From Nemertoderma westbladi (taxonomy: Eukaryota > Animalia > Xenacoelomorpha), in contig JAUCBJ010008008.1 of assembly GCA_032718475.1 (NCBI GenBank), forward strand, positions 1 to 56,698: DNA of 56,698 nt, given 5' to 3'. Both the position numbers and the translations under genes were made by a program. The notes under the pieces were generated by a model. It was given only the letters and a program-made list of their open reading frames with translations, was not told the DNA's origin and ran no database searches. This document shows positions 8,849 through 56,166 of the stretch, in pieces. The first letter of the stretch is position 1. The number at the start of each line of letters is the position of its first letter.

Positions 8849-8894
8849 GTAGGTGAAATTTGTGCGTAATGTGATTTAGTGATTCCATGGTTAA

Positions 8895-20693: not shown

Positions 20694-21243
20694 GGAGGCG
20701 GATTTACCAAAGGAAATCTGTGAGGGTTCGACTGAGTTGGAGAAGAAACTGCAGAGGACCCGTCGGCACCCGATCTACGTTCACTCAAAGATGATGATAG
20801 TGGACGACGAAGTGGTTATCATTGGTTCCGCAAACATCAACCAGCGGTCGATGAGTGGCGCACGTGATACCGAGATCGCGATAGGGGCCTACCAGCCGGG
20901 ACACGTAGATGATGGAGCCACGGCACCTCGTGGAGTGGTCCACGGATTCCGAATGTCATTGTTCGCCGAACATTTAGGAACAGAGTTCGTGAACAACATA
21001 GATCGTTTCCTTGAGCCCAGCGGCATTGATTGCATCAAAACCATTAATGAGATGGCAGAACGCAACTGGGAGTTGTATATACAGGATGAACCCAACGACC
21101 TACCAGGACACCTAATTCCCTACCCGTTGCAAATAACCCAGAAGGGACGTTTGGAGTATATACAAGGAATGAAACACTTCCCGGATACTTTAGGAAACAT
21201 TAAAGGAACCGTTACGAATTTACCCGATGATCTTACGTCTTGA
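20694..21243 (+). CDS. PLD: Phospholipase D terminal exon with second HKD motif
   Basis: aag|G GAG; [61 protein letters not shown]...LPDDLTS*; aataaa at 21269-21274. Confidence 0.95.
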
Positions 21244-27175: not shown

Positions 27176-27462
27176 ATGATAATAGAAACCTTGGCAACTA
27201 AGAAAATCGGCATGGAAGTCGATGACTTCGGCAGCGGTCGGATCTGCATAGACGACATTGACGATGAGGAGTTGGCGGCTCAGCAGTTCTTCCTGATGGC
27301 GGATTCCGAGATCCCTGGCGACGGGGAACCGCGACGGAATCGAAAACCCGGGAGGAAACCGTCGCGGAAGTTTACTCCGAAACAGATGCAGCAGCGCCAC
27401 GCGGCCAACATGAGGGAGAGGAAGAGAATGCAGCACATTAACGTCGCATTCGAGAGATTAAG
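27176..27462 (+). CDS. PTF1A: PTF1A/Fer1 bHLH transcription factor, exon 1
   Basis: QRHAANMRERKRMQHINVAFERLR basic region and helix 1; donor AG|gtaaga; the start could alternatively be the Met at 27212. Confidence 0.88.
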
Positions 27463-28722: not shown

Positions 28723-29534
28723 AATTTGTTTCACATAGAAATGGAAACGCATGGTCTCAATTATAAACGACAACAACATACAAATAATATATTTTCGATG
28801 TATATACCCGATACAGGAGGGGGAAACTAGACCCAAATACCATCTCAACGAATTAATATTATTACGTCTCAATGTTAAATTACCTATTTAAGGAAAGGAG
28901 CAGGTTATAGTGGCGCGATATTCCAGCCAAAACAATAAACGAAATTCAGTAGAAAAGGTCAAAAAATTTAATATTTGGGAGTAAGTAATCAGCTGTTATT
29001 TGCGTCGATTTTTCCCTGGAGAGAGATACATTTTTGATTGCGTCGAAAGTCCCCCCCCCCCCCCCCCCCCATCTTCAATACCCTGGGGATGCATTGCCCC
29101 AGCCTCTACAACACTGCACTTCAACAGCCAAGTGAATGACAAATTCATTTCATTATCACAAATAGTGCATCTTAACACTAGCTTACGGTTCATGAAAGTG
29201 AATGGTTGAGGTTGACTTACAATTTTCCTCTCACTGATCCATCGAGCAAGACAATTCTAAATGAAATATTAGCTACAGGTTAAACTACCTACGAATGAAC
29301 TACATCAACAGAAGGTGTATTGTAAAGTTCTTTCCACTGCCAAACCTGTAAAATTATTCAGTATGTTAGTATTTTGATGTAGGAAGCAATAATAAAGATA
29401 TCAACAACCTGCTGGTAAATGATCTCACAAGACAATAATTGTGGTGGATGTGTGTTGTTAGGTCCACTTGTTCTAACATTATTTATAAGTAATCTTACAG
29501 AATATTATATCCATTTATATAAATATATTTACAG

Positions 29535-34886: not shown

Positions 34887-35482
34887 AATTACTAATTAAT
34901 CGATTATTACCAATAAAACGTATTAACTGAAAATTGTTACAAATTTTTTATCTATAGTTGAACGATTCAAGAATGCAGTGTACAGATTATAATAATACCT
35001 ACATATTGTCAGGCCGATAGAAATTCACCCACCAATATTATCTTACGTTTTATTCTAGAATTATTTCTATAATTATATTCTAGTATTTTATAACGTAAGT
35101 AATAAACAATAGAAAACTATGTACTCTAGTAGACTTTAAACGATGCCCAATAGCTACTTTGTACTTTATATAGAATACTCTGATACTAGCTATTATAATT
35201 ATTATGAGCCTGTTACCAATTACAGTACTAGCTAGTATCTAACTACTATACACCATGACCCGTAATATAGTGTCATTTTTTGACCCCCCCCCCAAAAAAA
35301 AAAAAAATTTCTACAAATCTTTATCATAATGCTTGAAATTTGAAACACAACTAGTTCAACTCACCGTGGTTGTTACCATGAAGCCGGAATTTTCGATTTC
35401 GCCTTTAAATTTTATTTATAAGCGTTTTAAAAAAGTGTCTTTTGCGAAATCGCACCCTCTGTATCATTGCCATTCTTCACTT

Positions 35483-36427
35483 ATTATTGTGGTTGACTAT
35501 GTTCTACGCATGTCCTTAGATCATCATAATGATGATGGGGTGATGATAACTCCACCTACTGGCTCCAGAAGTCGAGGAAATCCTGCCAAGTACCTAACTG
35601 ATCTAGACTTTGCTGATGACTTAGGAGTACTCTCAGAATCATTAGAGGGAGCCCAACGGCTCCTCAGCTCATTAGAACATGCTGCTTCTAGTGTTGGTCT
35701 TTTTATTAACTCCAGAAAGACCAAAATTTTGACAGTTAACTTTGAAAGTCCTCAACAAGTCTCTGATCGGATGAGCATAATCTCAAAGGATGGTATGCTT
35801 GAGCATGTGGACGGCTTCTGTTACCTGGGATCATGGATCCGGAAGTCAGGTGAGGACCTTCGAATACGTAAGGGAAAGGCATGGGCAGCCTTGAATAGGC
35901 TTTCCAGGATTTGGAAGTCACCGAGAATTAATCGGAAACTTAAGGTCCGATTATTTAGAGCAGCAGTAGTTCCAGTACTCCTCTACGGGAGTCCATGTTG
36001 GGCTCTAACTGCTGAGGACACCAAATCTCTGGATCGCACATTCACAAAAATGCTACGCCGGGTTCATTGTGTCAAGTACAATGCACACAGCTCCAACCAG
36101 ACACTATATAACATTGGAGGTGTCTCATTGGTTCCCCCAAGCTTGACACTAGAACAAAATCGCCTCCGCTTTGCAGGACATTGCTTTCGCCGTGAGGACC
36201 AGCCAGTGCATAATCTTGTACTTTGGCAGCCTCATGGAGTGAATAAGCATGGTGGACAGCCCATGACTTTCTTGAGACGCATCTTAAAGGACACTGGCCT
36301 TGAAGATGCGGATGATCTAGCAAATGTCATGGGTGATAGGGAGTTGTGGCGGTGCAATTTTGTTGACAAGCCGGCACAGCATTCTTAAAAATGCAGCTGC
36401 AATGCAGCATGCCGATCCCTACTACTA
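35483..36427 (+). mobile_element. 5'-truncated RTE LINE with 12-bp TSD
   Basis: LDFADDL, FCYLGS, KVRLFRAAVVPVLLYGS..W, RLRFAGHCFR; (CTA)n tail; TSD cattcttcactt at 35471-35482 and 36428-36439. Confidence 0.93.
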
Positions 36428-36769
36428 CATTCTTCACTTTAGTCGTAATTTTTTCACATCAATAGAAAGCTTGTGTTTTAAGGATTCCAAATATGTAACA
36501 ATGTCTGAATTTCGTTGAGAAACAGCTGAGAAATAGGCATTCAAAGATTGCAAGAATTATAATTCACTGCAGGCCATTTATTCTATTTAATAACGTCACC
36601 TTCAAGGCAGAACCCCCTAAGTCGATTTTTGTAGTTCTGAGATAATCGATAAAAACTGTTTATTTTTTAGAGAGATGCCTCAGTTTACTTGTTATTGTGT
36701 TTTTTGATAACTAAATATATATAGAATTCATATAATTAAACTTTCAATTTGATTTAGAATTACCTTTGA

Positions 36770-37677: not shown

Positions 37678-38280
37678 AAACATTAAATGAGGGATAGATA
37701 TTTATCAGCGCCACAAACATTAAATGAGGGATAGATATTTATCAGCGCCACAAACATTAATGTGGGACAAACATTAATCAGGGTGACAAACATTAATGTG
37801 GGACATAAACATTGATGTAGGACACAAACATTAATGTGGGACATAAACATTAATGAGGACACAAACATTAATGAGGGACACAAACATTAATGAGGGACAC
37901 AAACATTAATGAGGGACACAAATATTAATGAGGGACACAAACATTAATGAGCGACACAAACATTAATGAGGGACACAAACAATAAACGAGGGACAGATAT
38001 CAATCAAGGGCACAAACATTAATGAGGGACACAAACATTAATGAGGGACACTAACATTAATGAGGTACACAAACATTAATGAGGTTCACAAACATTAATG
38101 AGGGACACAAACATTAATGAGGTACACAAACATTAATGAGGGACACAAACATTAATGAGGTACACAAACATTACTGAGGGACACAAACATTAATGAGATA
38201 CACAAACATTAATGAGGGACACAAACAATAAATCGAGGGACAGATATCAATCAAGGGCACAAACATTAATCATGGGCACT
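37678..38280. repeat. 19-bp minisatellite (inverted copies at ~38870-38945)
   Basis: Unit caaacattaatgagggaca. Confidence 0.92.
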
Positions 38281-39534
38281 ATCGCCCTTCGCACTTAGTA
38301 TGATTCCTGTTACCACCCATACACATACAATATATTACAGTATTACAATTCTCATTACTCTCAAGCAATAAAATAACAACAATAAATAATAACATATTAA
38401 TCTGACCAAACCAATAAACTACGTTATTGCCAATTGAAGGAAAGGATCAGGTTGCAGAGATGGTTTTTCTAACCAAAACAATAAACGATGTTGTTACTAA
38501 AAAGGGAAGGAGTAGGAGTAAAAAATGAACATGAGGGGGAGACAGGAATGGGGGAGGGGGGGGGGGGGGAGGGGGTAACATGAATGGTGGTGGTAGGAGG
38601 TAAATTGAAAATATGGGGGTATACCAGCCGGGGGGGGGGGGGGGGGGTAGCAGAAAACAGGCAGCTGAACAACGTAACCGAACGTTGCTTTCAATTAATT
38701 TCCATCTAATTAGGAAGATGGAATGTATACAAAACGGCGGTACTTTGATCGATGCTCACGTTCCCATGGTAGTATTTTTTCCAGTTAATCACTTAATATC
38801 TAATCGTCTGATGGCAAGCATCACCATCGCTCATATTAATATCCATTGGCAACTATGGACCCCTGCCCTATTAATGTTTTGTGTCCCTCATTAATGTTTG
38901 CGTCCCTCAATAATGTTTGTGTCCCTAATTAATATTTGTGTCCTGGCCGCAATACAAACCAGTATATAAATGATAAATTACGGGGTTTTGCCAGGCTATT
39001 GTTTCTGATTTAAGGGGTTTTACAGGTTGTTATTTCTGATTTAAGGGGTTTTGCCAGGTGGACTGAATTTCATATACTTGAATTTACGGTGTTTTGCAAG
39101 CCAATTATTGACTTGGGGGGTTCTGCCTCGAAGTGGGCATAAGTTACGGGGAACTGTCTTTGGCTTATAACTCAAAAATGGCTGGTAGAAAAGCTTCGGG
39201 GTTCTGCCAGACGAAAAAGCCGATATCGAATTACCCAAAAAGTCAAAAACATGAAAATCGAAAAAAATCGACTTAGGGGGTTCTGCCTTGAAGGTGACGA
39301 TAAATACACAATATTCTGGAACAATTTGTTTATGTATGATTAGCTAGGCAATATAGATATTGTATAGGCATACCGCTGTTGCCAACCAACTCATAAAATA
39401 AATATCACGTTCTAGAATTTTGTGTATTTATTAAATAGAATAAATGGCTTGCAGCGAACAATAATTCTTGCAATCTTGGAACGCCTATTTCTCAGCTGTT
39501 TCTCAATGAAATTCAGATATTGCTACATATTTGG

Positions 39535-40628
39535 TGTACGCGCTTTTGAAGACCTTTAGCAGTTTAACCTGCCAAAATTTATATGTCTTTTGGTTTATAA
39601 ATAGACTTTAGAAATTGACAAATATTTAATACCAATAAACACAACATTAGCAGAAGCCAGCCTAGTGCGCGTCCATTCACCCGCTGGATATACCCGGGAG
39701 ACTGGATTCTGAGGGCTTAGATTGTTATTGCAGTGTAAGCTTACTGTATTATTCGATTGATCGTTAATAAATAATTTCTGACCAATATTATTCACTTTCG
39801 GGAAATATTAACAGTTCCTTTAGGACGTGGCGCTCTATCTAGGTAAACAGAGATATGACTTATACTAAACACAACGGTAAGTCGGTAAGGCTTATGATTC
39901 ACGTATGAGGCGCATTCTTTAGGAAATGCTTAGTTATCAGCCACAATCATGCACACTACCGGTAACGCACAATACTGCTCACTAATTTGCCGACCGTCAA
40001 TGAATTTTATCATATATAAAGAGAACAGCAACTGACTCATGTAGTGCTTATCAAATAGCATTAAATTCACTACAAACCACAATAATATAAGTCGCAATCG
40101 CTATATGTAACCCGTCTCTCTAACCTGTAGTGTATCAAGAAAATTGGGAAATTTGGGTTCTTTATAGATGTTCTCCAAATAATATTTAACCAAATGATAC
40201 AAAATATGACAACAGTAAATAGCAGTATAATAATGTATGTTGAACCGATAATGTAAGACTGAACTGGACTGTTAAGACTGATAACAGTTATACGCTCTAT
40301 AATCTAAGCCTAAGTAAGACTGAACACTCCTAGCATGATCTGCCAAATATCTCCACATCGACAGAAAAAATCGCTCTGATTGGCTGTTAAGCTAAACAAA
40401 GAACCATGTGTCCAATGGCCGTTTCCATGTCAGCAACCAGCTGTTAGATGTCGTAATCTGAATCATCAAGGCTAAGCTGTGCCAGGGTATTTGACGCATT
40501 GCGGGTTTTTTGCCTTACCATGTCCACCAAAGCACACATATAGAAGAATGACTTTTATGTCCGTTAAAACACCTATAACGGTACCTTGCGGGCGAGGGGG
40601 ACTGAGTATATCCGCAAAAGCTTTTACA
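39535..40628 (-). repeat. 3' LTR (1094 bp)
   Basis: Direct repeat of 53341-54436 with about 10 differences seen by eye. Confidence 0.97.
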
Positions 40629-40706
40629 CCGCTCCCAGAAAATGGGATTCAAGTTTATAAATATACAAAAATCACAGTTTCTAATATATGTAAATACTCT
40701 AAACAG

Positions 40707-43700
40707 TTAGTCTTTCTTGCGCGGACGGCGTTTACGCAGTTTTTTAAAGCTAGCCAGAGTCTTTTTCTCTTTGGGGCGAGCCACTTTACAAGGAGGGCTA
40801 TAACTCCTTGGTGAAGGGTGCAATATGATTGCATCAGAGGGTGTAGGATTATGGTCGGTGTATCCGCCAGTCGAAGTACCGGGTTGATTGACATCAACGT
40901 CGGGGGAGAGGGGTCTAACGGCTTTGAGAGCTCGTTTTAAGACAGCCGCTCTTGCGGGTCCTTTACGAGTGGTCTGAACGAGAGCCGTGGGTGGACCATA
41001 GGCAGTCAGAAACCTCCTGGGTTTAATGGTTCTTTCCAACTCGCGTTCGCGGGCTCGGTATTCGTAAGGCCGTCGATATACTTCCTGTAACTCGGGGTGT
41101 GAGTTAACAAATAAGTCTCCATAGTCCGGATCCTGACGGATATAATTGATTAAGTTATAGGAATGAAGGTCGCTAGGATTAACACTCCTAAGAAATTTGC
41201 GTACGAACTTGGTTGAAATACATTCTCCGACGCGCTTCAGTAGTTCGTAACTCGATATGCGTGATTTCTGTTCGACAGAAGCGAATAGATAAGGATGGAA
41301 CGCATAAACTCCTTCGTAAGCGCGTCCAGGATAATAGCGATGGCGCGAATCACAATGTAGATCAGCGTTCGCTTCCCAAGCTCTGATGTAACGTAGTGTG
41401 ATCATTTCATCTACGCTTTCCAAATCGTGATTAAAAGGGCAATCGAAACTGGCGTGTCCCTTTAGTTGACAATGGTGACATTGAGTCATAAATTGAGGGC
41501 AAACCGCAAAAATATGCAAGTTATTGAGTCTGCAATATGCGCAATAAATTTCCATCGTCGGTTGTTCTTGGAAATAGGAACAGCGGACGTTTGTGTCCAT
41601 GGGCGTAACATGGTCTCTCGATGCGCATAACCGACAACGTTGCCTAGAAACATAGTTGGCATGTCGATAATCGTACGCAGTGAGACACTGTGGACCTTGA
41701 TACCATTCTATGATGTAATCGTTGTCGCTGTTCCGGGGCGCGATAGGCTGAATCTCCTCAGATTCTAGACATATTGGTTCGTCTTCCAAGTGCATAGCTG
41801 AGGTGGGCGTGTCTGTCTCTTCAAGTGGACCTATTGTCTGAATTTCCACGACAGAATAACCTGTGGGGATTCGAGGTCTTTGTATAACAGAGGAGTGCAA
41901 GTTCGATATACAAATCTCTTTGAAAATGGCGAATCCAGCGCTATCCAACTTCTCTGCAGCTGAGTTTCTTAGGCTGAGCTTGGTCAAAGCGCGGTCTTTA
42001 AATTGGCTATCCACGTTGCGGAACGGGGTTAAAAATCGCCGGAAACATTCGAAGCGGATGAATTTATTATGTTCATCTAGCTTAGCGAGTTTGGTCCCAA
42101 GTATTAATGGATGGGCGCGTATAGTACGACTGCACACATCGGCTAGCCAACCGGCAAGTGCGGTGTTTTCAAAGATCGTGTATATAGCTAAGGAGGGACG
42201 GAGTGGAACACTCATGAAGCTATACACGGCGCCAGGTGCGGTCAATGGTCCATCAAAGTATAATCGAGAATAATGGTCTCCGTATACTTGTTGATAGTTA
42301 ATGGGATTTCCGACTTTGAAATTCCATCCGTATTCCTGAAAGGCAAGATGTCCGATGGAAGTTCGTTGCACCTTTGTAATGTTGCTAGACGTATTAGCAT
42401 ACATGGTGCGGAAGAAACCTCGACCTTCTGCCCAGGGAGCAATCAGCTGAGTATCAACGAAAGGGTATGGAATGTTCTCCATATTCCGAAAGTCGTTTTG
42501 GAGATCTCCATAAACAGCTGAGCCGATTTTAAGGATTCTTTCGTTGAACAACATCTCGAGTACGGGCTGGGGTAACATCGATCCATCGATACCCATGGCC
42601 GGTTTGCGTTCGGTGTCAATGACGTAACGCTGCGCGAGTTCGAATTGTCCATGTCGGAGATTCTTTTGTGTTTCGGTGAGAGTTTCAAAGGAATAATCAA
42701 TCACGTCGGAACACGCTCGAGTAAACACGTGAGTAGAACCAGCTAATCCGCGTATGTGGATCATGCGCGTAGTTCCTATTTCTCCGACCGGAACGCTACC
42801 TTCGTTATCGTAGGTGACAACTCCATACATCTCAATAATATTAAGAGTTTCATTCCACTCCTTGGTGGCGTTCTCTAGGGTCATCCCTACTGGATGCCAC
42901 AAGGTGGCGCATTGGTTAGCGTCAGGGAGATCACTATACTTCATGTGCCGAGTGGTATACGTCTCCACATTTCCATATCTTTGTATTTTCTCTTCTTCAA
43001 ATAATACATCTAGATTCCAATGGACTAATCGAGTTTTAATAAATCCATCGAGATTATAAGGAGGTTCTATATCCTTCTCGATTCGAGAAATGTTATATGG
43101 TTTTCTAAATGAGTTTACCTTTACTAACTGATCCAGATGTTTCTGCAATTGTTCGAGCTCGACAATGTCTAGAGGATTTATTAGTGGTAGAAACTTTAAA
43201 TTATGCGTCGGGTCTTCTGGTTTTACCATATAATATTGAGTCAGATTAACGTAATAAGGGTGGTCTTTAATCCCATAAAACGAGTTCTGTAAAGGTCTAG
43301 CGCGTATGTTGACATCGTGTACCATACGACGGACAAGATCCGCTCGATTGTCCGGAGGTTCAACGAGTATACCGTCAACACGAGCGGCCTCGATCGGCGG
43401 ACGCTGTAACATAGGGGCGTCAGCGATAAGATTTTGCGATCCTGTACTGATATCAACCGGTTGAGGTTGTATCGTCGCGAAGAGTTTGTCTCCGAAATGG
43501 GGAATCATCGAGGGATGACGGACGGTTTTAGAGTAGAGATCCGTCATAAGGATTTGAGCTTCAGGTTGGGCTAAAGCGGCTTCTTCTCTCTCGTCCATTT
43601 TCGTGTGTTTCTCCTCGAGTAGATTTTCTTCCGCTTGTCTCTGTAAGCGTTCATCTAAAAATTCTTGTAGAGAATACGTGCGTCCAAGCTCGATGTCCTC

Positions 43701-44960
43701 CTCGAGGTTTTGGATTTCTCTATCGAACTGTGGCAAGGCCAACTCCTTCACCGATTGGACTTGTTGTTGTAATTTACGTTTCTCTAAACAATCTTGTGTT
43801 CCCTTTCCGATTTTCTGTCGAATGGCGTCTAAAGCGTTTCTTATAACGCTCTCTTCGACTTCCGTGGCGGGTTGCATCGGGTTTAATCCTGGACGATTGT
43901 AAGGATCAAATGGCGATATGAGCTGCCCGCGTCCCAATCCGGCTAAGTAGGATGGGCGAATGTCTAACGAACCCACTACCGGAGCACCACCGATTAATTG
44001 TTCGGGTAACACTAAGTCTTTGAACAGGGAATATAGTTCGGGAGGATCAGTGATACTGTTAGGATCAAGAGTTTGAGGTCTCACTAGGGAATGAGGAGGC
44101 CTGACCGAGTATTCCGGAACTCTGATCATGGGTTTATTCAGTGATCGTTTAAGACGAGCGATCGTAGGTGGTACGTCGAACAGGTTTCGCTCGAAACTCC
44201 CGTAAGTGTAACGCGTAAAGCTGTGTTTAGCGCAACGTCTCCGCGGATGTTTATGTCTTTCAGTTTGTTGGTTGGGTCTAGGGCATTCGTCACAATAATA
44301 CCAAAGACGTACGTCCTGCAGAGGAAACGCGGGTGATCGTTCTCCAGTTTTGCAGTATTCTTCCATTTGTTCAAAACTATCCGGGATAACAGGTAGTGGA
44401 CGATCGGCGGTAAGATACATCATAGTGAAATAGAGCCGTTTGAGTTCTACCACAGGGTCATGATGTATACCTTGAGGATATCGAGTCTCTAGGTTCTGCT
44501 GACTGGCGACGTTGAGATAGGTTTCTCTCAAAAATTCTAGGTATTCGTTGAAGTCGATGCGTTTATCCGGTTCTTCAACGTTTTCTCTTTCCAGTCTATT
44601 ACGAATAGAATTTTCGTGATCTATTCTCGGTTTATCGTTACGACTCCGCTGGGTATGGTATTTAAATAGAACCATTTCCCTCTCTGTATCTACATCGTCC
44701 GTATCATGTAAATCGATAGGATGGCCGGTAGTTAAGAAGTCCATATACGTACCATTACGATTCGTATAGCGAGCGGTGAATTTTCGATAATCCAATTCAC
44801 GCGCAAGTTGCTCTTGGGACATCGGCGGTTCGATATAACGACCATCGTCCTCTGTAATGGTTGGATCGGCTTCACCGCGTATTAAGCTATCCACAAATGC
44901 TTGTAAAGGTAGAGTATATCGCTCCCTAATACCAAGATCATCTTCTATCAACTCCGTCAT
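40707..44960 (-). CDS. 1417-aa retrotransposon cargo protein: DEDDy 3'-5' exonuclease-like domain (WRN/EXD/Mut-7 type) plus CCHC zinc knuckles
   Basis: VVTYDNE (ExoI), LPQPVLEMLFNERILKIGSAVYGDL (ExoII), FVDTQ, SIGHLAFQEYG, PLRPSLAIY (ExoIII-like); CRLCASRDH, CAYCRLNNLHIFAVC, CHHCQLKGHASFDC; basic C-terminus. The ORF itself is certain; the domain call is by eye. Confidence 0.75.
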   Translation of the reverse strand: MTELIEDDLGIRERYTLPLQAFVDSLIRGEADPTITEDDGRYIEPPMSQEQLARELDYRKFTARYTNRNGTYMDFLTTGHPIDLHDTDDVDTEREMVLFKYHTQRSRNDKPRIDHENSIRNRLERENVEEPDKRIDFNEYLEFLRETYLNVASQQNLETRYPQGIHHDPVVELKRLYFTMMYLTADRPLPVIPDSFEQMEEYCKTGERSPAFPLQDVRLWYYCDECPRPNQQTERHKHPRRRCAKHSFTRYTYGSFERNLFDVPPTIARLKRSLNKPMIRVPEYSVRPPHSLVRPQTLDPNSITDPPELYSLFKDLVLPEQLIGGAPVVGSLDIRPSYLAGLGRGQLISPFDPYNRPGLNPMQPATEVEESVIRNALDAIRQKIGKGTQDCLEKRKLQQQVQSVKELALPQFDREIQNLEEDIELGRTYSLQEFLDERLQRQAEENLLEEKHTKMDEREEAALAQPEAQILMTDLYSKTVRHPSMIPHFGDKLFATIQPQPVDISTGSQNLIADAPMLQRPPIEAARVDGILVEPPDNRADLVRRMVHDVNIRARPLQNSFYGIKDHPYYVNLTQYYMVKPEDPTHNLKFLPLINPLDIVELEQLQKHLDQLVKVNSFRKPYNISRIEKDIEPPYNLDGFIKTRLVHWNLDVLFEEEKIQRYGNVETYTTRHMKYSDLPDANQCATLWHPVGMTLENATKEWNETLNIIEMYGVVTYDNEGSVPVGEIGTTRMIHIRGLAGSTHVFTRACSDVIDYSFETLTETQKNLRHGQFELAQRYVIDTERKPAMGIDGSMLPQPVLEMLFNERILKIGSAVYGDLQNDFRNMENIPYPFVDTQLIAPWAEGRGFFRTMYANTSSNITKVQRTSIGHLAFQEYGWNFKVGNPINYQQVYGDHYSRLYFDGPLTAPGAVYSFMSVPLRPSLAIYTIFENTALAGWLADVCSRTIRAHPLILGTKLAKLDEHNKFIRFECFRRFLTPFRNVDSQFKDRALTKLSLRNSAAEKLDSAGFAIFKEICISNLHSSVIQRPRIPTGYSVVEIQTIGPLEETDTPTSAMHLEDEPICLESEEIQPIAPRNSDNDYIIEWYQGPQCLTAYDYRHANYVSRQRCRLCASRDHVTPMDTNVRCSYFQEQPTMEIYCAYCRLNNLHIFAVCPQFMTQCHHCQLKGHASFDCPFNHDLESVDEMITLRYIRAWEANADLHCDSRHRYYPGRAYEGVYAFHPYLFASVEQKSRISSYELLKRVGECISTKFVRKFLRSVNPSDLHSYNLINYIRQDPDYGDLFVNSHPELQEVYRRPYEYRARERELERTIKPRRFLTAYGPPTALVQTTRKGPARAAVLKRALKAVRPLSPDVDVNQPGTSTGGYTDHNPTPSDAIILHPSPRSYSPPCKVARPKEKKTLASFKKLRKRRPRKKD

Positions 44961-46424
44961 ATCTGCTATCTGAGTTTATTAATATCAAAATGAGTTTATG
45001 TTTAGGCGAGCGGGCGTCGCTGCCTACTTCTCTTTGCCCCCGGACAGTGGGATTCTCAGCGCCGATGTACCGTCGTCGCGGTGTTTACGCCAACATGTAG
45101 CAACAGCACGACAACGATAACCGGCACAAGTCACTCCACTGTCCGTCCCAAAGGCTTGGATCCACTTAGGTTCTTTCTATAGGAGAGTTGGGCTACTTTT
45201 ACAATTGCGACTAGCTACTGTAAACATACTTTAGCAGTAACATTCACCTATAAACGCACAAATTCCACACAACTGTCACCAATTGTACACATACAGGCCA
45301 TTTGTCCGTTAGTCAGTGCCTTCCAGAATGTCACGTTATTACTGTGTATCCTTGGATACTAACAGTGTGCTATGTATTCTCTATGCTATGCAATGGGACA
45401 AGCTTTCTATTGTTCTCTTAACTTGCTTCTAATTCTAGCGTGGGTGTTGCTATGGTGACATTATGGAATGCTAGCGGTAGAATTAGGGTAATTCTCATGC
45501 ATACAGATCTGGGATGCTATTTAATAGTAATTCTTTAATTGTCAATATCCTCTTTATGCATGATTTTATTAATTTTATCGGCTATTGACTATATGTTGGA
45601 GATTCTCGCACTCTAATACACTCAATAGGATGAATCTCCGCTCCCATGATCTATTAATTAATGGAATTTTGGGAATGTTATAAATTGCACAAAATGACAA
45701 TTTATGAAATTCATTTAAAATATGAATTTAAATTTATTCCCGTGAATTTTATTATGTGATGTTAAAATTGACACAATTTTTATTCCAGAACTTGTCTGGG
45801 GACGATAACCACTGATTCTAGAGTTTGTCTTTCAAGTATATCGGTGGGTGCCGCGATATCTTAATCGACTAGAATTACAGATGGTCAAAAGGTTTAACAG
45901 ATTTATTTGCGTTTCACGCTACTGTTAGAGGGACATCACGCTACTATATGTATTATTATATATGGTATGAGAGCAATATCGCACGAAGCAATGTCAGTGT
46001 GAAGAGGCAAGTCGTTTCCAAGGTCTACCCAGAGCTTGGTTTAGCCGAGACACGAGGATCTGAACTTTGCATTCCTAATACTCTGCCTACCAATAATACT
46101 TAAGTATAGTAGGAGCTTTATTGTACTTTAATAAGTACGGACATTTCATCTTACTGTAGTCACGTATTTATAATATGATACGGACAGTAAGGAAAGAGAA
46201 AAAATAATTATTTCTCGCCGTCGCACTAAATATATATTATAAGTAATTACGTACGTAATAAACACTAATATATTGCACTAATCTACTAAATAATCACTAA
46301 AAGAACATTCTACTAAATAAAATTAAAGAAAACGATTATAATAAAATTACATAATAATACATACATAAATATAAAATAAAAACAAATATAAAATGATATA
46401 GTCACACGCCCACTCCATATGTTA

Positions 46425-49400
46425 TTACGTTATGGAGTCCCTAGATATTTGTCGGATTAGGGAAGTGGTCGTAGGAAGAGTATCTCGCTTTCCATAGTTT
46501 CCGGACAGTTTTTGGTCTCTTTCCAGTAAACATAAACGACTAGCTGGGCGATTGAGTTGTTGTGTTACTTTCTCCGCTCCCTTGGCCTGTCTAATCTCCG
46601 CCGGGGTAAGATGAGGAGGCCATTCTTCTTCTTCTTTACTTAAGAAGTCAGATCCACCTAACCAGCCTGGAGTATCTATCAGTTCTTGAGGAGTTGCTCC
46701 TCTGGAAGCGATGTCGGCTGGATTAATCGTCCCAAGGCAATGTCTCCATTGATCTACGTTGGAGTTAATATCGTCATTATCTGAGGAGTATGGTGTTCCC
46801 TCAGTTGGATCGTCTACATCACTGCTCTCCACTTCCCATTCCTTTACTTGGTATACCTGTTGTTGAGGTAATCTCTCTTTGAGAGTTCTACGGGAAGGGC
46901 CAGTGAAGTACCAACCTACTCTAGTTCTTACCGCATAGGTTTGTAGTGGCTGCGGTTGAGCAGGCCGTTTCTCCAATGTCTCGAGCGCCTCATGCGCGTT
47001 TTGGCCGATGAGTATTTGCACTCCAGGATAATCTGTCTGGAATCGAGGTATCTTAAGATGTTGGATGCTCTCATCCTCGTCCCAATTATAAAGGTCTGCT
47101 TGAGTAGTAGCGAAGTTCTTTATAGCCACCATTTTTACCGACCTTATACCTTGTGCTCCTAATTTATCCTGGGGGGTGGACAACACACCTACATAGTAGT
47201 CTGCCGTTAGGGTAGATTTCCAAACCTGCATAATTCCTGACATATTCAATTTAGTCCGGAATTTGGGTTGTCCAGCAAAGATATCTTCGGCTAGTTCTTG
47301 ATCGATGAATGTTCCTGTGCTGCCGGAGTCAAGGAGGGCGTTCACTATGTAACTTTTGTTAGGACCGTGAACTCTTACCTGCACTACAGGAAATTCTCTG
47401 ATTCCTACGTTGGAAGTTGGAGCTTTCCAAGATGGTTGTCTGGCAAAAGTAGTTGGGGGGAACTCATTGTCGGTGTCCTTTTCATAAGTAAGTGCTCGAT
47501 ACACTGAGGTATTTATTAGGTAACAGGATTCGTTGGCGTCGGAGAATTCGTCAGTATAGAATCCTTCCATCTCAGACTCTTGATCAGTGTCATTTACATC
47601 ACTGAATTGGACATGTAGTTCGGGCTCACTTACCTGACTCGGGTTGTCTCGTTCGAACTCACTGTGTAACAAGATGTGATGTTTCGCGCCACACTTTGCA
47701 CACTTTACGTCGGAGTAACAGGTTCGCCGTTGGTGTCCTGGTCTGAGGCAATTATAGCATAACCGCTTATCCCACACGACTGCACGTCTGTCTACAAGGG
47801 ATTTCTTTAGAAATTCAGCACACGCACTCAAACGGTGGGTCCCGTCGCACAGCGCACAGTTAGGTTTTATGTTACTCACTTTACCTTGGGTAACCTGATG
47901 CACTCTCGTTCTTTCTTCGGGCTTTCTTCCGTGCATTCTGTTAGGAGACTGAGGAGGGGTCTTGGCAACCTGTTCTCTCCTATCGTTGGTTCGAGCCTTG
48001 TATTTACTTACGTCTTTTGAGGTTTTGTTAACGTAGTAAAATTTGTCAGTGTCTTTCCCGCTGTCCTCTTCTTGAGAAGCTTGGCTTTCGCCGTCGTCAG
48101 TGTAACACACCGGTGTGACTCTTCTCCTAGAAACGGGTTTCTCACTTACCTTATTTTCCGATGTTTTTTCTCTGGACTGCTTGATGAGTTGTAGTTTTAC
48201 TTCACCATCTAAGAAGGACATGAGATCAGCCATGGTAGGGCTTCGTCGTTGCTGCTCATTCATATACAACACTTTCTTGTCCCAGCGTGTACATACTCCA
48301 CCCTTTGGTAAAGTAGAGACTACTGCTCCAATAACCATGGAACTCTGATATTCATGAGACTTACCTAACCAGTCCAATTGTCTACAGATCTCCTGAATCT
48401 CATCGGAAAACTCTATAATCCCGCTACTAAGGAAGTTTCGGGGGGCTACTAATTTTGCATACAAATACTTAGCTATGTTATCCTTGTTACCATACCTGAT
48501 GTTTAATGTATCCCAAACTTGTCTTAATCCTTCTGGATGTCCAATAAACTTTAACGCCATTAACTTGGGAGGTCCTTCCAAGCACTTGATGAGGAACCTA
48601 AGTTTCTCTCCGTTAGATAGTACAGAGTTCTGTATGCTGTCTTTGTAATATTCATTGAAAGGTAACCATTTCATCTCATCTCCATTGAATTTGACGATCT
48701 CTCCCACTTTGACCGCTTGGCGGGCTTCTGTTCTAGCCATCTGACGCGTAAAGCTTTCTTGGGCCATCGTGTTATTTAATATCGAATTATCGGTATATAA
48801 ATTTCTCGGGTCATTATCAGGTCTATAGGGAATATCATTAACAACAGGTTTATAATCACCCTTAATAGGGTTTGCTATAGGAGTTTCTACTTCACTAGCA
48901 GTATAGATGCGTGTAGGCTCCACACCTTGCGCATGTAATACTTCAGACCTAACAGTTTGACACAATGTTACAGGGGGTATTGGTATACCCTTTTGTATAT
49001 TGACTAATTTGTCGCGTTCTAGCGCGATACTTTGCTGCACTTCTTGCAATTCGGCCCTACCTTCCCTTACTGTTCCCTTAAGTTGGTGGACAGTCTCCTG
49101 CATCTGTCCGAGCAGGAGATTCATCCCCCGCCGTCCCTCCTCTACCCACTCGACCGCCGAAGCGGGAGTCGCCAACATTGTAGCGGGCTGACGCGGGACG
49201 ACGGGAGACAAATCTTTGATTTCTCTCTCAGCTTCCAGGACAGGGATATTCTCATGGACTGTTCTACCGGGTACAGGCAGTGTAGTACTGTGTAAAGGGA
49301 ATTTAGAGTTAAGCTCTGGAAGTACAGGGGTCTCTAGCACAGCAGTGACTTTGGGAACGACAGGCCTAATTATTTCAGGCTCATCAACTATAGTAGGGAG

Positions 49401-51062
49401 TTTTTTGACCTTAATAATTTGGTCTGTAGGTTCTATACTACTTAAGTCTGTGCTAGCTAGTTGTCTTCTAACAGCTGGGGGCAAATCAGGCAATTTGTGA
49501 CGGTGAGATGTTTTTCTACGCCTGCTTAGAAGAGATCTATTTCCTCCGCCTTCAGGATCGGTGGTTTCGCTTTCCTCCGATGATGTGTATCCCTGGCGTT
49601 TGGGAGTAGATCTTCTCATCATCTGCATGTGACTAGCAGTTAACTGTTTATTTATGTTGTCTTGCGTCTCTTGCAGATTTTCCAACTCTAGTTGGGTAGT
49701 CTCCTCAGACGCTCTCCGTTCTGCTTCTGCCACCGCTGCTTTTCTTTCTGCTTCTGCTTCTGCCGCCGTTGCCTCTCTTTTTGCTTCTGCTTCTGCCGCC
49801 TTTGCTTTTCTTTTTGCTTCTGCTTCTGCCGCCGTTGCCTTTCTTTCTGCTTCTGCTTCTGCTGCCGTTACTGCTGCTGCCTTTCGGTCCTCTATCCGTT
49901 TTTTCTTTACTTGTTCTTCTTGTACTCTAGCGAGGCGGAGTTTTTCATCAAATTTAGCTTGGTTAGCAGCTAACATTTCCGCATCGATTGAGTCCAACAC
50001 AAGCTTGGTTCCTTCACTATTGGGGCGAAGTCCAGCCAGTCGTCTCCTCAACTCTTCATCACCCAAGAAGCGTTGATAGTCTGACAGATAGATGTCTATG
50101 GCGTCTCTCGAGGGCGACTTCTCTGCTGCTGTCTCTTCGCTTTCCACTTGAGAAAGGGTGGCATCGGTTGGTTCTTCATAGGTTGGTCTCTCAGCCAGCT
50201 GGGGTTTCCACTGGGCCGTTTCGTGAACTTTGAGACCTACCCGCTGGAACCAAGTCTTGACAGCAACCTGCAGCGACGTGTCCTGTCTTCTTTTGGAAGT
50301 TTCCTCAAAGGCTGATAGGATTAGTCTAATGCGTAGGGTTCTTTCGCGTACTTGATAAAGCAGCTCTTCCTGCTCTTGAGGTCCTTGAGGTTGTCGAAAC
50401 AATTGTTCTTCCAATCGCTCTAAGGAGCCGAAGAATCCCTGCACATATCCTGCTGCCGACCTCTTCCAAACAGCTGGATCCATCCTATCTTTAGCCACTC
50501 CCATCCTGTGTATATCTTCCCAAGTAGCTTCGGACAAATCTAACGGGAGTCCGGGTCCGGGAAAGTTCCATTGTGACTCGACAATAGACATCAATTCTTC
50601 CCTGGCGTATCTCGCATAACTATCTTGGGTCGCTCGCTTACTTCTCGCCCAATCGACTTGGTGTTCCTCCACCGCAATCAATATAGTAGTTAGCACTGCG
50701 GCAGGAAGGGTGAGAAGGGGATCCGAGTAGGCTGTAGCCGCCATCTGCACTCCGCATTCGCGGGTCAGCTCTACAGTATCCGAACTACTGGAGCTATCGG
50801 ATCGCTGGGAACAAGTTTCTTGACTAGGATGTTGCTGCTGTTGGACAGCTGCTTCCTGGTTCCGTTTGACTTGGGCCCGAGTGCCGATGATAGACCTACG
50901 GTGTTGGATTAGCTTAGGGTCTGATACTACTACTGGAGGGATGACCTTTCTTTCAGTAGGAGGTGAGCTGAACTCCTTTCTTAATCGCTCCACACTCCTA
51001 TCTGTGTCACAGATGGTTGTATCGATTAGACTGTCTGACAGGTTTTGCTGGGTGTCAGACAT
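46425..51062 (-). CDS. Bel/Pao Gag-protease polyprotein (1545 aa) fused to an RNase H C-terminal remnant; RT and integrase absent
   Basis: DUF1759-like KFNGD...W..F...EKLRFL...LEG; three knuckles CALCDGTHRLSAC, CYNCLRPGHQRRTC, CAKCGAKHHILLH; protease ALLDSGS, ILIGQN, AVRTRVGW; WRHCLGTINPADIASRG...WLGGSDFL. Confidence 0.92.
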   Translation of the reverse strand: MSDTQQNLSDSLIDTTICDTDRSVERLRKEFSSPPTERKVIPPVVVSDPKLIQHRRSIIGTRAQVKRNQEAAVQQQQHPSQETCSQRSDSSSSSDTVELTRECGVQMAATAYSDPLLTLPAAVLTTILIAVEEHQVDWARSKRATQDSYARYAREELMSIVESQWNFPGPGLPLDLSEATWEDIHRMGVAKDRMDPAVWKRSAAGYVQGFFGSLERLEEQLFRQPQGPQEQEELLYQVRERTLRIRLILSAFEETSKRRQDTSLQVAVKTWFQRVGLKVHETAQWKPQLAERPTYEEPTDATLSQVESEETAAEKSPSRDAIDIYLSDYQRFLGDEELRRRLAGLRPNSEGTKLVLDSIDAEMLAANQAKFDEKLRLARVQEEQVKKKRIEDRKAAAVTAAEAEAERKATAAEAEAKRKAKAAEAEAKREATAAEAEAERKAAVAEAERRASEETTQLELENLQETQDNINKQLTASHMQMMRRSTPKRQGYTSSEESETTDPEGGGNRSLLSRRRKTSHRHKLPDLPPAVRRQLASTDLSSIEPTDQIIKVKKLPTIVDEPEIIRPVVPKVTAVLETPVLPELNSKFPLHSTTLPVPGRTVHENIPVLEAEREIKDLSPVVPRQPATMLATPASAVEWVEEGRRGMNLLLGQMQETVHQLKGTVREGRAELQEVQQSIALERDKLVNIQKGIPIPPVTLCQTVRSEVLHAQGVEPTRIYTASEVETPIANPIKGDYKPVVNDIPYRPDNDPRNLYTDNSILNNTMAQESFTRQMARTEARQAVKVGEIVKFNGDEMKWLPFNEYYKDSIQNSVLSNGEKLRFLIKCLEGPPKLMALKFIGHPEGLRQVWDTLNIRYGNKDNIAKYLYAKLVAPRNFLSSGIIEFSDEIQEICRQLDWLGKSHEYQSSMVIGAVVSTLPKGGVCTRWDKKVLYMNEQQRRSPTMADLMSFLDGEVKLQLIKQSREKTSENKVSEKPVSRRRVTPVCYTDDGESQASQEEDSGKDTDKFYYVNKTSKDVSKYKARTNDRREQVAKTPPQSPNRMHGRKPEERTRVHQVTQGKVSNIKPNCALCDGTHRLSACAEFLKKSLVDRRAVVWDKRLCYNCLRPGHQRRTCYSDVKCAKCGAKHHILLHSEFERDNPSQVSEPELHVQFSDVNDTDQESEMEGFYTDEFSDANESCYLINTSVYRALTYEKDTDNEFPPTTFARQPSWKAPTSNVGIREFPVVQVRVHGPNKSYIVNALLDSGSTGTFIDQELAEDIFAGQPKFRTKLNMSGIMQVWKSTLTADYYVGVLSTPQDKLGAQGIRSVKMVAIKNFATTQADLYNWDEDESIQHLKIPRFQTDYPGVQILIGQNAHEALETLEKRPAQPQPLQTYAVRTRVGWYFTGPSRRTLKERLPQQQVYQVKEWEVESSDVDDPTEGTPYSSDNDDINSNVDQWRHCLGTINPADIASRGATPQELIDTPGWLGGSDFLSKEEEEWPPHLTPAEIRQAKGAEKVTQQLNRPASRLCLLERDQKLSGNYGKRDTLPTTTSLIRQISRDSIT

Positions 51063-52404
51063 GTTTAGCTATACGGTTGAATGCCTACTGCTATAGTTAC
51101 AGTTAAAGCAAGTCTAGTAATTCAGTATGACCGTTAGCCTAGTACCGTTAATTTATTACAGTATATTATAATACCGGTATACACTTATAATATATATAAG
51201 TATTGTAAACTAGTTTTGTCACAGAGTACCGGTATATAATTTTAGCACAAATATATATAAATATATAATAGGCCTATCGTGAATACCGGTATGCAGCTTA
51301 CACTTATAGTATATATAAGTATAATTATGAACTAGAATTAATTACAGAATACCGGTATGATTTCAGCCCAAATTTATAGAAATAAATATAATAAGCCTAT
51401 GGTAAATACCGGTATGTCAATTATTTTAGAATAATTGAATTTCTGAATATTTTAGGGTTACTTGGTTACTTTAACTTACTTTATTACCGTTATTTAAACA
51501 GTAGTCCAACTGATATTGAGACCTAGTTGTTGTATGGCAGGCCTACTATTTATAAATCGTTTGAGTTGATTTATAATATTTATATACCCGTTTAAAATGG
51601 GTTTTGTCAATATTTGAAATAAATGTTATTATTTCTGGGGGAAGTCACTACACAGAAGCTGTGCGCTCTCAGTGAAGTGCTACTTATGGGACACTAAAAC
51701 AGATAATTCTAATTTACCTAAGTTACTTAATACTACAAATTACGTACGATACGGGTGAGATTAATTCTCTAATTAAAACATAACAAATATTACGTACGAA
51801 ATTTTTAGGGTAATTTTACAGGAAGTCTACAAACCAGCCTAACAAAGGGTTAGAATTCTGGTTATTACAACGGACAGGGTACTACGGTATTTGAAAATAA
51901 TAAGTAGTAATAAATATGTTGCGCTGTCCAGATAGGAAAAATACCACCGTCTGACGACCTATAGCCGTATCGCTATAGGTACTACGTTATGTATCACGGA
52001 GTGTTTCTACCTAGAAGTTAATTACCGCGGACTACCAGATCCAACGTGCCTATTAACCACTTTACAACACAAATATACTGCCTACACACTAATTACCTTC
52101 GGAAAGCACTGTACACTAAACCCTAAATTAGGTACAAGTACTGGTACAACAAATAATCAGTAGTTAAATATACTTGAACAGTTAAAAGAACCACGGCATC
52201 TGCTGGAGTGACCGGAGCACAAAGTCACCAGTCTTTACCTACGCCAAGCAGCCCGTGTAGTACCGGGGTTAATTTAACTATAACGGTATGTGTAACAAGC
52301 ACAATTACTGTAGGAATAAACTTGGGGACATGAATGTTGCGAATAATCGCATAAACTCTGAATAATAAATATTACGCTACCCGTACAGAATACTCAAACA
52401 AAAT

Positions 52405-52935
52405 ACAAACCAAACGCTGGCAGACTACCACCAAGCCTAAATAAACTACAGTATTGTGCAGATTCCGAAATGGTTAGTTAGTATGCGTTCTAACACGGTA
52501 GCACGACTTATTCTTTAAGAGGGGATTGACCTTACAGCTATGGCTGCCCCAACTTACTAACTGGCACTTTATCAGACAAACTCTACACACGCAGCAATCT
52601 CTTCAGACCTAATAATAGCTAGACAACAATCCAGCCTACAAAATATCTGAGTAATAACTATTACGGTACCTGAACAGACCACACAAACAAACACAGGCCA
52701 AAACGCTGGCAGAATACTGTCAAGTCTAAATAAACTACAGTATGTGCAGATTCCAAAATGGTTAGTTAGTATGCGTTCTAACACGGTAGTACGACTTATT
52801 CTTTAAGAGGGGATTGACCTTACAGCCCTGGCTGCCCTAACTTACTAACTGGCACTTTATCGGACAAACTCCACACACGCCGCAATCTCTCCAGACTCAA
52901 CAACAGTCAGACAACAGTCCAGCCTACAATTATCT
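52405..52935. repeat. ~290-bp tandem duplication in the retrotransposon 5' UTR
   Basis: aaacgctggcaga...ccagcctacaa occurs twice (~52410 and ~52700). Confidence 0.9.
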
Positions 52936-53112
52936 GAACAATCTGAGCAGACTTACACGTCTTCAGCTCAATATTAACTTACATGTAAATAAAACCGACA
53001 GAAATAAGTAAAATCTCAATAAAAAACCAGGGCGGCCGTTCCCTGATTAAGTACTAAGACCTACCGGTATACAATAATCAAAATCGAATAATACTAATGT
53101 ACTTATACTGGA

Positions 53113-53280
53113 AGTACCGGTTAGGACAGTTGGGCCTACAGACCTACAGCAGTACCGGTTCAGGCAATTAGGCCTACGGACCTACAGCAGTACCGGTTCA
53201 AGCAGTTGGGCCTACGGACCTGCAGCAGTACCGATTCTGGCAGTTGGGCCTACGGACCTACAGCAGTACCGGTTCAGGTT
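53113..53280. repeat. 38-bp tandem repeat (~4.5 copies) next to the 5' LTR
   Basis: Unit cagttgggcctacggacctacagcagtaccggttcagg. Confidence 0.9.
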
Positions 53281-53340
53281 TACCGGTCGACCGGTACTTT
53301 CAACTTTATTGCTTACTGCAATAAAGACAATAACTGTTAT

Positions 53341-54436
53341 TGTACGCGCTTTTGAAGACCTTTAGCAGTTTAACCTGCCAAAATTTATATGTATTTTGGT
53401 TTATAAATAGACTTTAGAAAATGACAAGTATTTAATACCAATAAACACAACATTAGCCGAAGCCAGCCTAGTGCGCGTCCATTCACCCGCTGGATATACC
53501 CGGGAGACTGGATTCGGATGGGGCTTAGATTGTTATTGCAGTGTAAGCTTACTGTATTATTCGATTGATCGTTAATAAATAATTTCTGACCAATATTATT
53601 CACTTTCGGGAAATATTAACAGTTCCTTTAGGACGTGGCGCTCTATCTAGGTAAACAGAGATATGACTTATACTAAACACAACGGTAAGTCGGTAAGGCT
53701 TATGATTCACGTATGAGGCGCATTCTTTAGGAAATGCTTAGTTATCAGCCACAATCATGCACACTACCGGTAACGCACAATACTGCTCACTAATTTGCCG
53801 ACCGTCAATGAATTTTATCATATATAAAGAGAACAGCAACTGACTCATGTAGTGCTTATCAAATAGCATTAAATTCACTACAAACCACAATAATATAAGT
53901 CGCAATCGCTATATGTAACCCGTCTCTCTAACCTGTAGTGTATCAAGAAAATTGGGAAATTTGGGTTCTTTATAGATGTTCTCCAAATAATATTCAACCA
54001 AATGATACAAAATATGACAACAGTAAATAGCAGTATAATAATGTATGTTGAACCGATAATGTAAGACTGAACTGGACTGTTAAAACTGATAACAGTTATA
54101 CGCTCTATAATCTAAGCCTAAGTAAGACTGAACACTCCTAGCATGATCTGCCAAATATCTCCACATCGACAGAAAAAATCGCTCTGATTGGCTGTTAAGC
54201 TAAACAAAGAACCATGTGTCCAATGGCCGTTTCCATGTCAGCAACCAGCTGTTAGATGTCGTAATCTGAATCATCAAGGCTAAGCTGTGCCAGGGTATTT
54301 GACGCATTGCGGGTTTTTTGCCTTACCATGTCCACCAAAGCACACATATAGAAGAATGACTTTTATGTCCGTTAAAACACCTATAACGGTACCTTGCGGG
54401 CGAGGGGGACTGAGTATATCCGCTAAAGCTTTTACA
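53341..54436 (-). repeat. 5' LTR (1096 bp)
   Basis: Direct repeat of 39535-40628; CCAAT and TCAGT initiator-like motifs on the - strand around 54060-54195. Confidence 0.97.
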
Positions 54437-56166
54437 TTTGGAATCCTTTCAACGCAAGCTTTCTATTGATGTGAAAAAATTACGACTAAAGTGAAGAATG
54501 GCAATGATACAGAGGGTCCGATTTCGCAAAAGACACTTTTTTAAAACGCTTATAAATAAAATTTAAAGGCGAAATCGAAAATTCAGGCTTCATGGTAACA
54601 ACCACGGTGAACTAGTTGTGTTTCAAATTTCAAACAATATGATAAAGATTTGTAGAAAAATTTGGGGGGGGGGGGTGGGTCCGTGTCATCAGAAAATGAC
54701 ACTATATTACGGGTCATGGTGTAAATGAGTTTGGACTTGAAGACACAAAATAAAGTTTTTTTCAAAACCTTTTTTGAAATATATTTAATACAGGCTTATA
54801 ACATTCTTAAATGTTACATCGTACAATATCATGCTGTGAGAAGCAGTCTTTCTGACGGGCACATTGGCACATGTAATTATACTAGAGAATCAGGAATCAG
54901 TGCACAAAACGTTTCGTTGGAATTCTTCGAAGTGGTGTCATCACGGAACGGAACGATGTTACGAAAGTAAGCGAACTTACCACTATCTAAACCTGTGTGT
55001 CTGTCGAAAATTGTTCCTTATACTTATTACCATATTTGTATTATTTTTGTCTGCACCAAACATTTTCCCACCACGAGAACTCTACCACTACCTGAAGACT
55101 ATTTATAATGTTACTTAGCAACGGAGTGTATATCTGAAAATATAAAACAATGGGAAATTTAAAAAACTAAAATAGTTGGTAGACCTATACAACGGGTTGG
55201 GGCGGCTAATCTGTTACGGCACCCAACTATCTGGCAACCTTTATACACTTGCCTAACCGAAACACGTTTTTAGCCTGACAAAATTATATAATTGTTTAAT
55301 TTGAACTACAAACCGAAAGAAAATAATTGTATCTAATTTAATTTATGTACGTAATTTGCACTCTGCCTGGCCATACAGTATATCATTTTCTTAATCGTTG
55401 TGTTTATATCTACTTATATGTCGGTATGTTTATACTTTACTTCGTTTGTCAAATAAATAATTCCAATTCCAACCCATCAATGTACTTGATATATTGGTGG
55501 TAAATTCGGATCCCATAACGCTACGACCACTATATATGCATGAGCCGATTGAGGTTAAATAGAAAATCCAGTTACCCCGGCAACCGTGCTAAACAGATGT
55601 TAAAATTTATAAAATGTTAATTTGAAGCCTAAGGAGAAGGTGTTGGGACCAGCCGAACCCCTACCCCCACTTTTTAGTAGTTCTGCATCCGAATTTGATA
55701 GTTCTATTTTGCAGTTACCATGCCAACCGCTGAAAAAATATGTTTTGACACAAAATAACTCATTTTGGACATAGACGTCGCAATAAAATATTACGAAACT
55801 GGGTATTTGTTTTCTGGACCACTAGTTGGAACTTTTAGTGAAACTAAAAACATTCCAGAAATATCTAGTTACCATGGTAACTGAAGTTTATTAAAGTCTA
55901 TATAATTCAAGTCAATATCTATATATAACTCTATTTGTATCAAAACTATATTAGATATAAACTTCGGGTTTCAGATACAGATACAGATACCATGACAACG
56001 TGGCTAAACAGATGTTCAAAATTATAAAATGATATTTTAAAGAATAAGGTTAAGCAACACTTATACACGGCACGTGTTGTATTACCTCTTGGGACCAACA
56101 CCTATCCCCACTATAGCACTTATTCTGCATGCGAATTACATTGTTCTAATTTCCAGTTTCCATGAC

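Follow-up and report, generated by a model that had tools for sequence, protein, structure and literature searches.

We analysed a 56,698-nucleotide (nt) stretch of DNA from Nemertoderma westbladi (GenBank assembly GCA_032718475.1, contig JAUCBJ010008008.1; hereafter referred to as the window) and found on its reverse strand a Bel/Pao-type LTR element of 14,902 bp (14.9 kb; positions 39535–54436). We consider it likely that this element inserted recently and belongs to an amplified Bel/Pao lineage, whose members share two in-frame deletions in pol, probably rely on their own Gag and protease to package their RNA, and borrow RT and integrase from rarer, undeleted relatives. Behind the shortened pol, the element carries a second large gene, ORF2, which is under purifying selection and is a candidate exonuclease gene.

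In the orientation of the element, a 5′ LTR of 1,096 bp (53341–54436) is followed by a non-coding leader of 2.3 kb with tandem repeats of 38, 288 and 123 nt (51069–53329), ORF1 (1,545 amino acids), a 1.45-kb spacer with no open reading frame of more than 50 codons on the element's strand, ORF2 (1,417 amino acids), a purine-rich tract that directly abuts the 3′ LTR and would act as the plus-strand primer (40629–40637), and a 3′ LTR of 1,094 bp (TG..CA; 39535–40628). In a pairwise comparison, the LTRs are 99.09% identical (K2P distance 0.0073), with eight mismatches and one 2-nt indel. The element is flanked by the TSD TTTGG (39530–39534 on the left and 54437–54441 on the right), and the inverted paralogue of the target repeat at 36428–36593 reads through with a single TTTGG. 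A preliminary description of this DNA had given the LTRs as ~99% identical and the TSD as perfect, and both statements hold. On the basis of the LTR identity and the TSD, the insertion is a recent and real transposition. An empty-site joint (39528–54436) in the public sequencing runs X1, X3 and X5 was rejected as an insertion polymorphism because the target sequence is repetitive and the window contains a paralogue of it. TG..CA LTRs, a 5-bp TSD and a purine-rich tract are typical of Bel/Pao elements, and all three are present here; by its Gag, its ORF order and its LTR features, the element is assigned to Bel/Pao (Belpaoviridae).

The rest of the window contains several further repeats and genes. 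Non-LTR RT fragments lie at 18109–20261 and 35330–36388. The second of them belongs to a repeat that is present several times in the window; the Bel/Pao element is inserted where this repeat carries on in inverted orientation. Two large phospholipase D exons on the forward strand (7931–8869 and 20677–21243) have several mobile elements between them; the second matches PLD_C and PLDc, and the first, which has no Pfam match, seems on inspection to belong to the same gene. A Mutator-like transposase is open for 585 amino acids on the forward strand (22363–24120; PF20700, E = 1.5e-55). A GC-rich, broken gypsy-like fragment with gag, protease and the start of RT was recognized by eye at 14107–16992 and is adjoined by long inverted repeats (14107–14398 and 14684–14985), and tandem arrays occupy 27379–28786 (43 nt), 37706–38327 (19 nt) and 5924–6717 (68 nt). 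Rfam returned no matches, and no tRNA genes were found in the window.

ORF1 comprises 1,547 codons from stop to stop (46425–51068) and 1,545 codons from the first ATG at 51062 (46425–51062), the length reported in the preliminary description. The ORF call, profile and Pfam comparisons characterize it as a Gag–protease with two Pol remnants. Its Gag has a long N-terminal extension with an 11-residue repeat, also described previously, which corresponds to 4.6 tandem copies of a 33-nt unit (49719–49869); joints in other copies suggest that the number of units varies among copies. The extension is followed by a DUF1759 Gag domain (48303–48689; residues 794 to 922, Pfam E = 3e-12), three Bel/Pao-type Gag zinc knuckles (47664–47858; residues 1071 to 1135) and an aspartic protease region (46899–47384), in which a weak Pfam aspartyl protease match, the sequence LLDSGS at residue 1245 and the catalytic D1247 are present. 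The RNase H tail, WRHCLGTINPADIASRG, begins 50 residues past GWYFTGP (residues 1385 to 1391), the last motif of the protease region, in agreement with the ~50 residues noted before. It was also thought to be directly followed by a stop, which is not the case: 64 more codons follow, with a conserved end-of-Pol motif (46524–46556; residues 1505 to 1515). The retained C-terminal end of RNase H occupies 46567–46757 (residues ~1435 to 1500, profile E = 2e-18). Just as the preliminary description had found no YVDD, no RT-type YxDD occurs in any of the six frames of the element, the sole match being YTDD at residue 989, within Gag. The RT YxDD, RNase H core and integrase DDE that characterize an autonomous Bel/Pao element are missing from this one. 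Homologues of ORF1 numbered 19 among 7,624 candidates (21–47% identity), 18 of which have Peptidase_A17 (PF05380), and the nearest relatives carry Peptidase_A17 and DUF5641. No shorter protein relative of the ORF1 junction region was found among 2,924 candidates.

Comparison of ORF1 with these homologues delimits what was lost. The Pol profile was built from the Pol halves of 16 of the 19 homologues, with the truncated P0010 and P0017 and the RT-less P0012 left out. The Pol remnants of ORF1 map in the Bel/Pao single-ORF order PR–RT–RH–IN, and the tail of the protein forms three separate profile blocks: the protease up to residue 1412, profile positions 712 to 774 at residues 1435 to 1497, and the end of Pol at residues 1501 to 1519. 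The distance between the GW and NPAD motifs is 64 residues in ORF1, as compared with 568–614 in the 12 relatives in which both motifs were found, and the distance from NPAD to the end motif is 58 residues, as compared with 514–572 in 15 relatives. These motif distances and the contig ends described below place an in-frame loss of ~520 residues (RT and most of RNase H) at 46757–46770 (junction 1) and an in-frame loss of ~490 residues (the integrase region) at 46562–46567 (junction 2). The end-of-Pol motif scores 19.3 bits, the next-best site in ORF1 scores 7.9, and none of 20,000 shuffled sequences scored as high; because this motif is kept, the integrase must have been lost by a second in-frame deletion. 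Judged by its protein blocks, ORF1 therefore has two in-frame deletions rather than one. The single in-frame RT deletion near 46770 of the preliminary description is retained as the RT loss at 46757–46770, and the integrase deletion at 46562–46567 had been overlooked. The RNase H tail and the end of Pol are probably leftovers between two successive deletions.

The deletions recur in contigs from public sequencing data. The data comprise eight runs from four studies, seven of which contain part of ORF1; the window itself may derive from one of the runs compared, X4 may consist of RNA reads, and the depths given here are contig depths, not copy numbers. All 30 bins of the element had coverage in four of four runs, and ~3,980 sites varied. 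For the stretch 46470–46930, contigs came from three of four runs (none from X6), and 24 of 1,194 pieces and 18 of 94 loose ends were listed. Among the listed pieces, two span junction 1 with at least 31 letters on each side, X5 record 20 (depth 1,085; 20 differences in 154, 13%) and X4 record 15 (15 differences in 130, 12%); three others also cross it, with a shorter side of fewer than 31 letters. Junction 2 is spanned by X5 record 17 (depth 960; 17 differences in 153, 11%) and, marginally, with 30–31 letters on its short side, by X3 record 1 (depth 4,671; 14 differences in 106, 13%). Of 40 differences in the tail stretch, 19 are synonymous (30% expected, p = 0.017), a weak signal of selection, and 8 of 15 are so in the RNase H remnant. 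Both counts come from the best-supported 40 of 149 differences, which, like the other best-supported differences used below, are not a random sample. A deep X5 variant is a stop at codon 1444, in the tail.

The runs with contigs crossing the junctions represent three studies, and the crossing contigs are 11–13% diverged from this copy, whereas its own LTRs differ by 0.7%; the deletions are therefore far older than the insertion. Since diverged contigs cross both junctions, they mark an amplified lineage and not the decay of one copy, and, artefacts in the bridging contigs aside, post-insertion decay of a single complete copy is scarcely credible as an explanation. The preliminary description had proposed a non-autonomous lineage and a search for other copies with the same junction (~46770). 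Run on read contigs, this search found junction 1 in contigs of both X5 and X4, and the deep contigs across both junctions support the proposal and exclude the possibility, raised at the same time, of a deletion unique to this copy. A very improbable alternative is that segmental duplication or recombination, in place of retrotransposition, multiplied the copies, and that their ORFs are decaying. Across ORF1, 3 of 12 differences are synonymous, with no signal of selection (among the best-supported 40 of 3,981), as decay would predict. However, the exact LTR ends, the purine-rich tract and a TSD within a repeat whose paralogue represents the empty target argue against duplication, as do two open ORFs of more than 1,400 codons and the selection on ORF2, in which 14 of 18 differences are synonymous (30% expected, p = 5e-5; among the best-supported 40 of 3,981).

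Other listed contigs (X3, X4 and X5) stop matching the element at 46756–46757 and 46768–46770, and at 46562 and 46567, and continue for 53–285 letters past the junctions. These departure sites coincide with the junctions predicted from proteins alone. As contigs leave on both sides of both junctions, undeleted relatives probably exist, and from the position of the departing contigs we infer that they encode RT or integrase and belong to helpers. Among the pieces listed, those leaving at junction 1 have depths of 10–30, whereas one piece leaving at junction 2 has a depth of 839 in X5, and X4 pieces leaving there are as deep as the bridging ones. Given this deep departure in X5, a simple picture of a rare helper and a common parasite is incomplete; the piece hints at an abundant intermediate without RT only.

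ORF2 (40707–44960; 1,417 residues from the first ATG) has a basic C terminus and contains a predicted DEDDy (RNase D-like) 3′–5′ exonuclease domain (residues ~715 to 950; 42126–42833). The candidate catalytic residues are D723 and E725 in Exo I, D824 in Exo II, and Y932 and E936 in Exo III (Y932...E936), of which the Exo II region was scored by profile; the residues of Exo I and Exo III come from an alignment and visual inspection. The final acidic position holds E936, not D, and is also E in P0022, the one relative that ORF2 has among 1.84 billion representatives (E = 5e-6). P0022, a 648-residue protein on a 9,449-bp ENA contig, has an exonuclease-like domain with the same Y..xE variant of Exo III and then zinc knuckles, and matches PF01612 weakly (E = 0.2); it shares 29% identity with ORF2 over 171 residues, after which both proteins have knuckles. 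In ORF2, these form a Cys/His zinc-knuckle cluster in the same order as in P0022 (residues ~1115 to 1180; 41436–41633).

A profile of seven bacterial RNase D/PolA domains scores residues 803 to 848 of ORF2 at 14.6 bits and P0022 at 13.5 bits, as compared with at most 2.0 bits in 200 shuffles and 0.2 bits for six other retroelement proteins. When metagenomes were scanned blind with an alignment of just ORF2 and P0022, 2 of 272 stretches were retained, both of which match PF01612 (E = 1e-5 and 0.05); one of the two matches the WRN exonuclease (E = 1.5e-7), and its alignment to ORF2 has a probability of 91% across 30 columns. The metagenome loci L001 and L002 contain WRN-like exonuclease pieces that are split into short frames, as by introns. 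Direct searches gave no such match: Pfam returned nothing significant for ORF2, PDB sequence searches returned knuckle and coiled-coil matches and no exonuclease, and ORF2 was missed by a profile of 16 stand-alone WRN-like exonucleases, out of 24 loci tried. A search of longer proteins with the ORF2–P0022 alignment found only P0022 among 7,992, a tblastn search with the bridging exonuclease found nothing in plasmids and phages, and a genome scan with A3 retained 0 of 60 stretches. Both predicted structure models (AlphaFold) have a pLDDT of ~30. On these comparisons, it is likely that ORF2 has an exonuclease fold, and the chance that the putative enzyme is catalytically active seems a little short of even. 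The exonuclease domain and the knuckles account for all but ~1,000 residues of ORF2. A reading of ORF2 as env was rejected, as the protein has no transmembrane segment and its highest 19-residue hydropathy is 1.2. Deep derivatives without most of ORF2 also occur, with joints at 41786–44591 (depth 2,918, X5) and 40868–43606, and represent shorter sub-families.

A primer-binding site complementary to a tRNA is typical of Bel/Pao elements. Here, no such site was found: the first 300 nt of the leader contain no tRNA-type TGG. The preliminary description had noted neither this non-tRNA primer site nor the probable exonuclease nature of the ORF2 cargo. The 11 nt at the primer-binding-site position (53330–53340), which begin at leader position 1, are instead the exact complement (11/11 nt) of LTR positions 338–348, and the candidate self-primer lies at 54089–54099 in the 5′ LTR and at 40281–40291 in the 3′ LTR. 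The self-primer of Tf1 is likewise 11 nt long. This 11-nt complement appeared in 26 of 20,000 shuffled LTRs (55 when offsets of 1–5 were allowed), and 11-nt matches were reached at 6 of 2,200 leader offsets. If transcription is assumed to start at LTR position 338, the probability of pairing between the 5′ end and the site is ~0.9 for two leader lengths, and pairing is absent for a third. The 11-mer is a near-palindrome with an initiator-like TCAGT just downstream, and a longer leader–LTR duplex (45 nt) is no stronger than those of other leader windows. We lean slightly towards the view that the element is primed by its own 5′ end, in the manner of Tf1, rather than by a tRNA. A deep, diverged X3 contig (depth 8,226; 53159–53330) lacks the leader repeats of 38 nt and meets the element again at 53330, on the border of the 11-nt site.

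These features most likely fit together as follows. The RNA of the element would be translated into Gag–protease, which would assemble into particles; we infer from the intact motifs that the element makes its own particle. RT and integrase would be provided by co-expressed, undeleted relatives that recognize the same LTR ends, and reverse transcription would be primed by the element's own 5′ end. ORF2 would be produced from a separate or spliced message, as are the ORF3s of rotifer elements, and, as a likely DEDDy exonuclease with RNA-binding knuckles, would be a trans-acting accessory directed at RNA 3′ ends, either those of the element RNA or those of host silencing RNAs. Reciprocity between helper and element is possible in this scheme, and not required by it.

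Other divisions of labour can be considered. In a reciprocal two-component system, an idea already raised in the preliminary description, an RT-bearing helper without ORF2, or with too little Gag, would depend on this lineage for exonuclease and particles. The purifying selection on ORF2 in deep copies is compatible with such a system, as is a precedent proposed for wheat Cereba/Quinta; moreover, the deep derivatives that skip most of ORF2 (41786–44591) imply that copies can do without it in cis, so that a function in trans is conceivable. However, ORF2 sits behind the retained end of Pol, its expected place in a complete element, so that in the simplest history the complete ancestor already carried it, and we regard reciprocity as unlikely. 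A three-tier family, in which a rare complete master gives RT, an abundant RT-less lineage gives integrase, and the doubly deleted lineage gives neither, is an appreciable possibility but not one that we favour. It would explain why, among the pieces listed, departures at the RT junction are shallow (10–30) and one at the integrase junction is deep (839), but none of the 24 of 1,194 pieces listed links the states of both junctions, and the deletion in the deep variant could be another, shorter one. Quite improbable is the fullest combination, a self-priming Bel/Pao consortium in which the master supplies RT, the RT-less lineage integrase, and the doubly deleted lineage particles together with a captured anti-piRNA exonuclease that degrades host silencing RNAs. 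We prefer the reading of a Gag-keeping lineage that takes RT and integrase from rarer, undeleted relatives.

The individual parts of the element have precedents elsewhere. TR-GAG elements of plants (Chaparro 2015, PMC4350172) are derived from copia and gypsy, are smaller than 4 kb, have one ORF and keep Gag, and they are mobile although RT and integrase are absent; the GAG/PROT-only families of sugar beet (PMC13570524) are likewise mobile, non-autonomous LTR elements without RT and integrase. The present element resembles both in that it keeps Gag (and protease) without RT or integrase and shows mobility. It falls outside the definition of TR-GAG in size, ORF and Gag, being a Bel/Pao element of an animal, 14.9 kb long, with a second gene of 1,417 codons. 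As a Gag-keeping non-autonomous element, it also resembles RLG_Quinta of einkorn wheat (PMC11302176), which is proposed to return Gag to the autonomous RLG_Cereba. Those two families are centromeric gypsy elements, recognized as partners by a shared primer-binding site, LTR termini and the promoter half of the LTR, and, unlike for this element, no nuclease cargo was found described for them in the passages of that paper. An 11-member Bel/Pao cluster (P0012 and P0023–P0032; three named Armadillidium vulgare) encodes Gag–protease with a long coiled coil and no RT or integrase, with a weak end-of-Pol match in 10 of 11 members; known from proteins alone, it has the appearance of a crustacean family that became Pol-less convergently.

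Cargo genes and self-priming have their own parallels. In the retrovirus-like bdelloid rotifer clades Juno and Vesta (Rodriguez 2017, PMC5408684), a DEDDy exonuclease ORF3 with the motif DEED lies behind a complete pol and is expressed from a separate or spliced message; that study detected no selection on its sequenced ORF3s. In the present element, too, the gene behind pol is predicted to encode an RNase D-like exonuclease whose DEDD motif is altered, here apparently to D-E-D-E as compared with DEED. TelKA2n (PMC5408684) is non-autonomous and keeps its ORF3 without most of pol, and in this retention of cargo it resembles our element, but its cargo is env-like and its gag truncated. The Bel/Pao elements Anakin and roo (PMC7642597, PMC13524379), of which defective LTR-bearing copies are common, also carry an added gene; theirs is an env-like ORF for a membrane glycoprotein, unlike ORF2 with its lack of a transmembrane segment. 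In Tf1/Sushi, Tj1, Tcn1 and TAR (PMC4600332, PMC6317226), which are gypsy chromoviruses and some plant copia elements, the primer-binding site pairs with the 5′ LTR and not with a tRNA; the same complementarity to the element's own LTR is seen here on a Bel/Pao backbone. Within titles, abstract openings and passages of openly available papers, we found neither an exonuclease cargo nor self-priming in Bel/Pao. Each part thus has a published precedent, in TR-GAG and Quinta, in the bdelloid DEDDy ORF3s and in Tf1, all of them gypsy or copia cases, and none was found for Bel/Pao or for the combination, although Repbase-type records may hold such a family.

For non-autonomous LTR families that keep Gag, good descriptions exist from plants, and few from animals. 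In the family reported here, two datable junctions sort the copies into classes, so that a single good assembly can show in which order genes were lost and how labour is divided. The element further offers a testable case for the role of exonuclease cargo in retrotransposons, with a signal of selection in ORF2 where the rotifer ORF3s sequenced showed none, and for the question of whether tRNA-free self-priming has arisen in Bel/Pao too.
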